Positions 24,902 to 26,535 of a DNA stretch of 64,000 bases are shown here, piece by piece (the stretch's first letter is position 1; each line of letters begins with the position of its first letter). The DNA is from Escherichia coli. GTDB lineage: Bacteria > Pseudomonadota > Gammaproteobacteria > Enterobacterales > Enterobacteriaceae. The DNA is taken from the NCBI RefSeq assembly GCF_046105845.1, contig NZ_CP151004.1. One strand, given 5' to 3'. A program made the position numbers and the translations under genes. The notes beneath the pieces were generated by a model. The model worked only from the letters and a program-made list of their open reading frames with translations. It ran no database searches and had not been told where the DNA came from.

Positions 24902-25261
24902 TTTCAAATGTAGAGATTATTTTATCGATATATCATGGGGTTATGTTATTCAGCATCACAGTTCAGGAGGCTCAATAGCGGGGTACTATACCATAACAAC
25001 AGGAAGCGCCTGTCTCATTGCAAAAGAAAATTGAGATCCTCTCAAGGCATGAAGCTCTCACGAAGTGAAGATATAATCTTATTAGATGTTAGCGTTGTGA
25101 AAAGCAATGATAAACAATTCAGCTTCGACGATAAATAAAAAATCACACATAAACCATGCTGATATATCTCGCGGCGAATAGTATTGATAGATAAAAAAGA
25201 ACCCAATCATTGTTGAGTTCTTTTATATAATGCCTTCCATACCATCGAAGAACTTCACATA

Positions 25262-26218
25262 TTATTTCTCCGATTTAACCCCGAATAAATCATAAATTAA
25301 TTTAGAAGTATCTGTAAGTATTTTAATCTCTTCCTTTGAGGTTGGGTCAAACGACTTAGCGAAGCTAATTAATTGCGGTGCAGCATCTCGCATTTTGCTT
25401 AAAATATCAGGATCGAGCTTTCCTTCATTCACCAGAATTGACATCTTCTCCAGATAGTCATCAAAATTCATTTCTCCCCCATCTGCCAGACGCTTCATCT
25501 CTCCCAGGTACTTCTTCATATCACGTTGAGATAATTCTTCAAACTGAGCTGTCAGGTAGTTATTATTATATTCATTAATATTCACTCTTCCTGCTAAATC
25601 TGCGTAGGCACTAGAATATGAAAGTGAAATTAACAGCGAAGCGAATAATTTTAAGCTGTTGTCATCATATTCCTGACATGCATTAACAAACGTTAAGAAA
25701 CCAGAACCTATTGCTTGCAAATGTATATTCGCTAAAGGTTCATTATCTTTAGATTCCTCATAAAATAGCTGAACCGTGGAGGGAAGGCCATTCTTAGTTT
25801 CTACGTCAAAAGTACATCGTTCTATGGGCGTCGCATCTTTATTATCCTCGAGATTACATATACTATTAATCGCGAAATGAAAAATAGCCCGGTCAACAAC
25901 TGATGCAATATATTCACGATCGTTTAATTCCTCATCAGTACAATCTCCAATATACTCATTGACACACATTTTGAGATCATTTATTTGCTTAATTAACGTC
26001 ACATTTTTTTCACGTGCAGTCCATAAATTATGAGTGATTCTTTGAATAAACAAATCTATTTTTGCAATAATTATATCCCGATGACGCATCGTTGAATAAT
26101 CAATAGATTTACCATATATACTATTTACTTTACCTTTGATTGCATCTTCATTATCGAATTGATTTGAATTGAGTGTTTTATTAAAGTATCCAGTTGCACC
26201 GGGTATTATCTTCAACAT
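25262..26218 (-). CDS. Hypothetical protein, 318 aa, AT-rich; occupies the dusA-zur interval where K-12 carries yjbL and yjbM
   Basis: Uninterrupted 318-codon ORF with an ATG start in a strongly AT-rich stretch; no recognisable motif. Confidence 0.6.
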
Positions 26219-26535
26219 GATTCATCTACCTTTTTTGTCGTACCGTGTCCTCCTTATAATTCTTTTGCCATCTGGTCACTATCAAAAATCGCTCATAATT
26301 TTCTGAACTACGGGTATGCGATCAACCCCAGTTAAATAAATAGTGAGTTAACTTAAAGCAATTCATTTAAAAATGAATTATTAATTATTATCGTGTAGAT
26401 AATGGTACTACCAGGCAACACAACACCTTACCTACAAAACAGAAAATCAACATTACGGTAACAATAAGGGTTCTCGGTGTTTTTCCTGGAACATGGTAAA
26501 GTAAGGACATTCTTAACCCCACTTTGAGGTGCCCG

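Follow-up and report, generated by a model that had tools for sequence, protein, structure and literature searches.

The interval between dusA and zur in a 64,000-nt stretch of Escherichia coli DNA (NZ_CP151004.1; hereafter the window) contains, on the minus strand, an open reading frame (ORF) that is the intact form of the gene carried by E. coli K-12 as the separate fragments yjbL and yjbM. The encoded protein belongs to the DUF2713 family, and the gene lies in a small islet at one edge of which the 5' end of dusA is of phage type, while strains of phylogroup B2 have an empty site at this position. We favour, with a probability of roughly 0.7, the account that the intact yjbL-yjbM gene resides in an integrase-less 1.66-kb remnant of an element that had integrated into dusA, and a decayed remnant is the best reading of the islet as it stands today.

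The borders of the islet were defined by blastn comparison with a strain of sequence type 131 (ST131) that has an empty site. Homology to ST131 ends at position 24813, within the coding region of dusA, and restarts at position 26470, which places the islet at 24814..26469 (1656 bp, 35% GC). These 1656 bp stand in for 133 bp of empty-site strains that comprise the native dusA 5' end and its promoter. In the two non-carriers looked at, the ST131 strain and PM06121, dusA and zur are separated by a spacer of 155 bp, and LF82 likewise matches at the zur side only. The native body of dusA downstream of the att core (23864..24795, minus strand) is 97.5% identical to ST131 dusA and agrees with the RefSeq annotation of homologous loci. 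It is joined to a phage-type surrogate dusA 5' end (24796..24904, minus strand), which includes the shared att-core overlap at about 24796-24813 and was recognized by its identity to phage attP segments and by its displacement in lysogens. At the opposite border, empty-site strains share zur together with the 66 nt that precede its ATG at 26536 (26470..27051, plus strand; blastn against ST131 and annotation).

A search of phage genomes with the region that precedes the ORF in window coordinates revealed that 24796-24904 matches mEp460, SKA5, 1720a-02, Lys8385Vzw and PhiR40_1/47_1/55_1, and in these phages the surrogate segment is located at attP, 85 bp from a tyrosine integrase. The first approximately 30 codons of dusA in the window (24812-24904) are 83-84% identical to the phage segments; when B2 strains and Salmonella Infantis are compared, whose 5' ends are native, the value is 29-30%. 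The DusA N-terminus of the window differs from the native B2 N-terminus. The native 5' ends of B2 E. coli and S. Infantis are 63% identical to one another and have a common upstream TATGCTATAGTA motif. The breakpoint of the surrogate 5' end lies at the PMLD-coding core, and the phages part from dusA right after ..ATGCTCGA, which is also the end of the 1720a-02 prophage record. It has been described that dusA-specific elements, with their integrases, provide a replacement dusA 5' end (PMC4482086); that the dusA 5' end of K-12 itself is of phage type is mentioned neither in that study nor in a 2026 paper on DusA (PMC13136901).

Lysogens in IMG/VR have the order ORF, islet-down segment, displaced old surrogate (100% identical to that of the window), 16-nt core and mEp460-like left arm, and thus modern mEp460-like phages still integrate at this dusA site. 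The prophage begins after the displaced dusA 5' end, and therefore the ORF shows up at the edges of predicted prophages and in PHROGs. The PHROG matches were considered as a sign of phage ancestry of the protein and rejected, since no sequenced phage encodes it and the IMG/VR copies are prophage-edge genes. Matches of the ORF to records labelled as plasmids were likewise rejected, the records being chromosome-sized or mislabelled.

Two side observations concern the genes that flank the islet. The K-12-type DusA annotation (345 aa) starts within phage-derived DNA, and the native DusA of B2 strains and Salmonella has 331-332 aa and another N-terminus. Beyond the 66 shared upstream nucleotides, any promoter or operator element of zur in K-12-type strains is islet DNA, and therefore zur regulation could differ between phylogroups.

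The ORF itself (25262..26218, minus strand) starts with ATG and ends with TAA in the ORF list, matches Pfam PF10897 and is collinear with K-12 YjbL and YjbM. It is the sole long ORF between dusA (23864..24901/24907, minus strand) and zur (26536..27051, plus strand). An earlier note on this DNA had described a single uninterrupted 318-codon ORF with an ATG start in the interval, which is correct, and had placed it at 24908-26535, which delimits the whole intergenic interval and not the ORF. The AT-richness described there was also found, the GC content in 300-nt windows being 29-37% in the interval versus 52-57% in the flanks. The ORF has a GC content of 34% and a third-position GC content of 29%, and the third-position values of dusA and zur are 60% and 54%, respectively. 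At the composition of the interval, the probability of 318 stop-free codons is about 1e-11, and in 1000 shuffles of the interval the longest open frame had a mean of 80 and a maximum of 182 codons, compared with the observed 319. The product is an acidic 36-kDa protein (isoelectric point 4.85), and no transmembrane-like segment was found in the 318-aa product when its physical properties were computed. The N-terminus had been called rich in Asn, Ser and Thr, and it is moderately so: together with Gln, these residues make up 33% of residues 2-25, which corresponds to the 78th percentile of the ORFs in the window. A hairpin with a T run that resembles an intrinsic terminator (25195..25224, minus strand; 12-pair stem, consensus match only) was the one site found in a terminator scan; it begins 38 nt past the stop codon and suggests that the ORF may form its own transcription unit. 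A promoter scan performed no better than on shuffles, and an Rfam search of the islet yielded sub-threshold noise only.

In the curated record of MG1655, yjbL (b4047, 84 aa) and yjbM (b4048, 235 aa) are adjacent, separate coding sequences on the same strand. DNA and protein alignments showed that YjbL and YjbM are collinear with the N- and C-terminal parts of the 318-aa ORF, and thus the earlier proposal that the K-12 genes of about 84 and 235 aa are pieces of this ORF was confirmed with respect to both collinearity and orientation. The K-12 lesion is one base missing from a poly-A run, CACGT-AAAAAAA-TG (A7). The tract was read in 14 loci, and its states are A7 in K-12 (frameshifted), A8 in intact close alleles and G+A7 in the window, where the slippery tract (GAAAAAAA, 26004..26011, minus strand) is in frame; A7 occurs in many strains besides K-12. 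Addition of one base to the K-12 sequence restores an ORF of 328 aa. YjbL corresponds to the N-terminal part and terminates at a stop directly behind the slip, and YjbM begins at the next in-frame ATG. On this sequence evidence, yjbL and yjbM represent a single frameshifted gene in two halves. That the gene is split was already on record, because the Prokaryotic Genome Annotation Pipeline (PGAP) treats the 986-nt homologous stretch in K-12-lineage genomes as one 'DUF2713 domain-containing protein, frameshifted', whereas the curated MG1655 record still has two genes.

The suggestion that the ORF is the ancestral intact gene must be narrowed. The window does contain the intact form, but the gene lies in an acquired islet that is missing from B2, and the window allele is not the direct ancestor of that of K-12. 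The two alleles have a protein identity of about 89%, and the window has one 30-bp (10-aa) repeat unit fewer. Its single copy (GATGCAAnCAAAG[AG]TAAA..., 26117..26146, minus strand) was delimited from the DNA and from a protein alignment of the 318-, 328- and 338-340-aa alleles. The unit, DA[TIN]KDKLDN[RI]G, occurs in one, two or three tandem copies, yielding proteins of 318, 328-330 and 338-340 aa; the repeats are located at about 1894-1953 in the K-12 locus (L063) and at about 72-161 in locus L026, and fall within the predicted disordered N-terminal region.

The islet is widespread but not universal in E. coli: 4,037 of the 5,426 complete genomes hold at least 80% of the dusA-zur interval, and the rest, about a quarter, are without the islet and match at the zur edge only. 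The exact K-12 61-mer across A7 is present in 869 genomes (about 16% of the complete genomes), including human clinical and animal isolates, and about 1,150 further genomes match it at 95-99%. Three genomes from this latter band (dog strain D1, O26:H11 strain FWSEC0001 and 2013C-4081) all have A7 and are flagged as frameshifted. A7 may be present in up to roughly half of the carriers, a value extrapolated from an evenly spaced sample of 30 rows and not counted. It should be noted that the product names ('family protein' versus 'domain-containing protein') cannot separate intact from frameshifted copies. As a further observation, E. coli UCPROB-002 has an IS200C copy inside the islet (NZ_CM142927.1 2389506-2392084), which is another, independent disruption of the locus.

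Inactivation at the poly-A tract appears to be recurrent. A7 was found on one-repeat and two-repeat backgrounds alike, and therefore either recurrent slippage or spread by recombination has to be assumed. The tract could in principle be a phase-variable contingency switch that operates by slippage, and the occurrence of A7 on both backgrounds would be in line with this, as would the coexistence of the A8, A7 and G+A7 states with 327-aa alleles that lack one Lys codon at the same site. However, a tract of 8 nt is short for efficient switching, large clonal groups, the entire K-12 lineage among them, are fixed for A7, and a single A7 event could spread by recombination, so that such a switch appears very improbable. 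The 327-aa proteins (P0033, P0038, P0035, P0028 and P0018) are K-12-like, read HAR-KNV and are in frame; they could have arisen either by a direct contraction of 3 nt or by a second, frame-restoring slip after A7.

Three deeply diverged allele classes occupy this one slot, at unchanged distances from zur and dusA. Class I comprises the window, K-12 and strain 1190 (318-340 aa), class II is represented by P0177 and P0178 (334 aa) and has hundreds of member sequences labelled E. coli, and class III is that of ETEC1738 (318 aa). The protein of the window has an identity of 53% to class III, with a rate of nonsynonymous substitution (dN) of 0.32, a synonymous rate (dS) of 0.78 and thus a dN/dS of 0.40; the respective values are 50%, 0.36, 0.63 and 0.58 for the window and class II, and 63.5%, 0.24, 0.53 and 0.45 for classes III and II. 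The classes are thus under moderate purifying selection, which is strongest over residues 51-80 (dN/dS 0.15-0.44), a region that also forms a motif conserved throughout the family. Between the classes, zur, dusA and the edges of the islet have a nucleotide identity of 97-100%; identity drops to 74-82% over the 5' part of the ORF and further to 54-69% over its 3' half. Such a peak of divergence in near-identical flanks fits either long-term balancing selection together with recombination or repeated import of diverged copies. Among class II variants, P0122 (L006) and P0176 (L013) have in-frame deletions of about 36 and 18 aa, respectively, in the C-terminal half and are otherwise 99-100% identical to P0177, which suggests that erosion of the class II C-terminal region is tolerated or ongoing.

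These data also bear on the view that the ORF has no function and is a relic on its way to being lost, with relaxed constraint and recombination as the source of its diversity. The frameshift in many genomes (the 869 exact K-12 61-mers and more at one mismatch), the in-frame deletions and the IS200 insertion would all be expected of a relic; moreover, dN/dS values of 0.4-0.6 are high for E. coli genes, and a quarter of the genomes do without the islet at no obvious cost. Nevertheless, all three classes, at 50-63% protein identity, have full-length ORFs in DNA of 35% GC in which stops arise easily, the overall dN/dS lies clearly under 1, with values of 0.15-0.44 across the conserved motif, and paralogues of 22-28% identity keep the same motifs. 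This maintenance of the ORF contradicts pure decay, so that we regard a mere relic as quite unlikely. Because full-length ORFs have been kept across deep divergence in stop-prone DNA, the DUF2713 protein probably is, or recently was, functional.

The family is restricted to E. coli. Pfam PF10897 (DUF2713) matched residues 84-318 with an E-value of 2.3e-144, spanning the complete model (positions 1-235 of 235). When 5.8 billion proteins were searched through a word index, E. coli-type sequences alone were retrieved. A full HMMER search of 1.84 billion representatives turned up a few more relatives, of 313-426 aa and 22-28% identity, whose sources are E. coli isolates and gut metagenomes. Neither the locus gene nor the long paralogues had a relative in two scans of 100,044 genomes representing species, and at the DNA level the long paralogues were not matched in any of the 5,426 complete E. 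coli genomes. The searches thus indicate that the DUF2713 family is confined to E. coli. For the 318-aa product, NCBIfam has no family and a sequence search of the PDB returned nothing at E up to 10; in the wider family, Pfam detected nothing other than DUF2713.

The limits of the available family models copy the fragments of frameshifted alleles. PF10897 covers residues 84-318 (235 aa, YjbM), and phrog_29005 and phrog_28007 cover residues 73-318 (246 aa) and residues 1-32 (a 40-aa N-terminal stub as in 2013C-4081), respectively. The PF10897 and PHROG boundaries are therefore not real domain limits, and the models miss the true N-terminal third. In a model by AlphaFold2 (AF2), residues 1-42 are disordered, with a predicted local distance difference test score (pLDDT) below 50, and after them comes a helical domain that includes a three-strand sheet (residues 132-166).

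The paralogues are located in neighbourhoods of another kind. One of them (P0150) adjoins a SopD2-N/PipB2-like pentapeptide protein and KfrA, another adjoins IS3, hok and an AIDA autotransporter, and others lie amid fragments of the insertion sequences (IS) ISL3 and IS256 like those near astA on plasmids of E. coli and E. albertii. The neighbour of P0150, at 3842-4777 on the minus strand of a gut-metagenome contig (L007), is an unannotated, effector-like protein of 311 aa whose N-terminus resembles that of SopD/SopD2 (GFWDRFCDLF included) and which has ADLRH pentapeptide repeats as in PipB/PipB2; a group II intron fragment lies between its gene and the DUF2713 paralogue. The effector matches of this protein are far under the curated cutoffs.

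Several results weigh against the account of a decayed dusA-integrated element that harbours a functional gene. No integrase was found in the window by tblastn with the mEp460 integrase (best E=0.28), the att core occurs once only in the window (24797-24814, with up to 3 mismatches allowed), and no direct repeats flanking the islet were detected. Of the features of a functional dusA island, the islet has the insertion at the 5' end and the replacement of that end; it has no integrase and no attL/attR pair, and the native dusA 5' end expected beside attR is absent from the window. The demonstrably phage-derived part of the islet is 24796-24904 only, and the islet beyond 24904, including the ORF, has no match in modern dusA phages or Salmonella loci. 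To account for the missing integrase and att core, one has to postulate either two or more deletions or a separate insertion. With respect to the protein, AF2 with a diverse alignment reached a pLDDT of 74 and a predicted template modelling score of 0.71 in one of five models only, no credible structural neighbours of the model exist in PDB, AFDB50 or BFVD, and no defence-system family in PADLOC matches the protein at E up to 1. The literature search found no papers on DUF2713, none on yjbM with H-NS and no experimental or expression data; the matches for yjbM mostly concern an unrelated ppGpp synthetase of B. subtilis. Finally, the frequency of the A7 frameshift also fits simple decay.

A rival account has the opposite order of events, in which the gene was resident between dusA and zur before a phage arrived, the phage was later lost together with attR and the native dusA 5' end, the loss in B2 was independent, and the ORF was never cargo. 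Known dusA phages contain nothing that matches the ORF or its flanks, modern lysogens have the ORF outside the prophage, and Salmonella has unrelated genes (STM4242 and a zinc-dependent alcohol dehydrogenase) in the same interval, all of which would be compatible with a resident gene. However, every islet allele examined has the phage-type dusA 5' end, which is 100% identical across the classes. Furthermore, in B2 the native dusA 5' end and promoter, orthologous to those of S. Infantis, abut zur-proximal DNA, which is explained most simply if B2 never had the islet. A GC content of 35% likewise favours acquisition, as does the fact that the family was found in none of the 100,044 species representatives. 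A resident gene is thus unlikely, albeit the most serious competitor to an acquired islet.

On the favoured account, an element integrated into the dusA 5' end via the known dusA-specific integrase route and brought a surrogate 5' end and promoter that are still in use in K-12-type strains. Subsequent deletions took out the native 5' end of dusA along with the integrase and the second att site. The yjbL-yjbM gene would have arrived as cargo, either with this element or with DNA inserted into the scar afterwards. It would be transcribed alone, and its product would be soluble and acidic, a 36-kDa protein in which about 42 disordered N-terminal residues, bearing the repeats, precede a helical domain with a small beta-sheet.

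The protein may be a mobile-element 'moron' involved in genetic conflict, for example in phage exclusion or interference, that is dispensable and often lost; the scar position, the AT-richness, the own terminator, the presence/absence polymorphism, the deep allele classes, the recurrent inactivation and the paralogues in mobile or virulence-type neighbourhoods point in this direction, and we hold this role as a tentative possibility that is short of probable. A more elaborate version, in which DUF2713 is a hitherto unrecognized, E. coli-restricted conflict protein from an ancient dusA element that acts, for example, in phage exclusion by a single gene or in interference with mobile elements, its three old classes are kept by balancing or diversifying selection centred on the C-terminal half, and it is repeatedly switched off at the A8 tract when not needed, is speculative and rather unlikely in its entirety. 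We do not think that the product is a partner of dusA or zur.

Alternatively, the protein might be a substrate or effector of a type III secretion system (T3SS), encoded by the locus of enterocyte effacement (LEE) or the E. coli type III secretion system 2 (ETT2) cluster, with the disordered, Ser/Thr/Asn-rich N-terminus as the signal. Residues 1-42 are predicted to be disordered, the N-termini are polar with few acidic residues family-wide, and P0150 has the SopD2-like and PipB/PipB2-like neighbour, while another paralogue adjoins the AIDA autotransporter and hok. In addition, the absence from B2 parallels that of the ETT2 cluster, a co-distribution that is confounded by phylogeny. However, the N-terminal Ser, Thr, Asn and Gln content of 33-42% is only at the 78th-95th percentile of unfiltered ORFs, there is no chaperone or T3SS gene nearby in the window, where the locus is flanked by dusA and zur only, and commensal and laboratory strains that have no functional T3SS commonly have the gene. 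Furthermore, only one distant paralogue has an effector-like neighbour, and the matches of that neighbour fall far below the curated cutoffs. An effector role is thus hardly to be expected.

The phage-scar context, including the phage-derived N-terminus of K-12 DusA, the three deep allele classes and the slippery tract are newly recognized here. For the K-12 reference annotation, this means that yjbL and yjbM are halves of one gene and that the 345-aa start and N-terminus of DusA are phage-derived, as opposed to the native 331 aa. In a phylostratigraphic study (PMC12218254, Table 2), 'yjbL, yjbM' is listed as a homogeneous two-gene operon of young genes; counting it in this way amounts to counting a pseudogene. 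The most-used E. coli strain holds an unrecognized fossil of dusA integration, by which the upstream regions of both dusA and zur have been rewired. The unusually deep allelic divergence in near-identical flanks offers a compact case for contrasting balancing selection with recombinational import. The practical impact will be modest unless a role in conflict or host interaction is shown.

Comparison with known systems places the locus among familiar ones. The ORF shares gene, locus, strand and collinearity with K-12 yjbL/yjbM at about 89% protein identity, but the window has one 318-aa ORF whereas K-12 has a -1 frameshift (A7) and an extra 30-bp repeat unit. Like the dusA-specific genomic islands and prophages known as DAI elements (Farrugia et al. 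2015, PMC4482086; e.g. mEp460), the islet is located at the dusA 5' end, has an element-derived 5' end and has its crossover at the same conserved PMLD-coding core. In contrast to these elements, it spans 1.66 kb only, has no integrase, no attR and no predicted excision capacity, contains a cargo ORF without counterpart in sequenced dusA phages, and is a fixed fossil in most non-B2 E. coli. Salmonella enterica subsp. houtenae (L017 4001-5593) also has a phage-type dusA 5' end, 81% identical to that of the window, and no integrase, but it differs in having about 140 nt more of phage-like upstream sequence, a zinc-dependent dehydrogenase and STM4242, and no DUF2713 gene; its dusA-zur interval appears to be an independent, parallel decayed remnant at the same hotspot. 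S. Infantis (L018) has kept the native dusA 5' end. The long paralogues P0150, P0151, P0174 and P0160 (397-426 aa), which stem from gut metagenomes and rare E. coli isolates, share the motifs KLDxFxQxIT..LW.AS.K, DR.IF.F and LL.SLLIS.SY.S..AD with the ORF, at 22-28% identity over the helical core, but they have an extra N-terminal region of about 100-150 aa and are found in IS-rich, plasmid-like or virulence contexts and not at dusA. The islet is best read as what is left of a decayed dusA island, and its ORF as an orphan DUF gene; neither is a novel kind of system.

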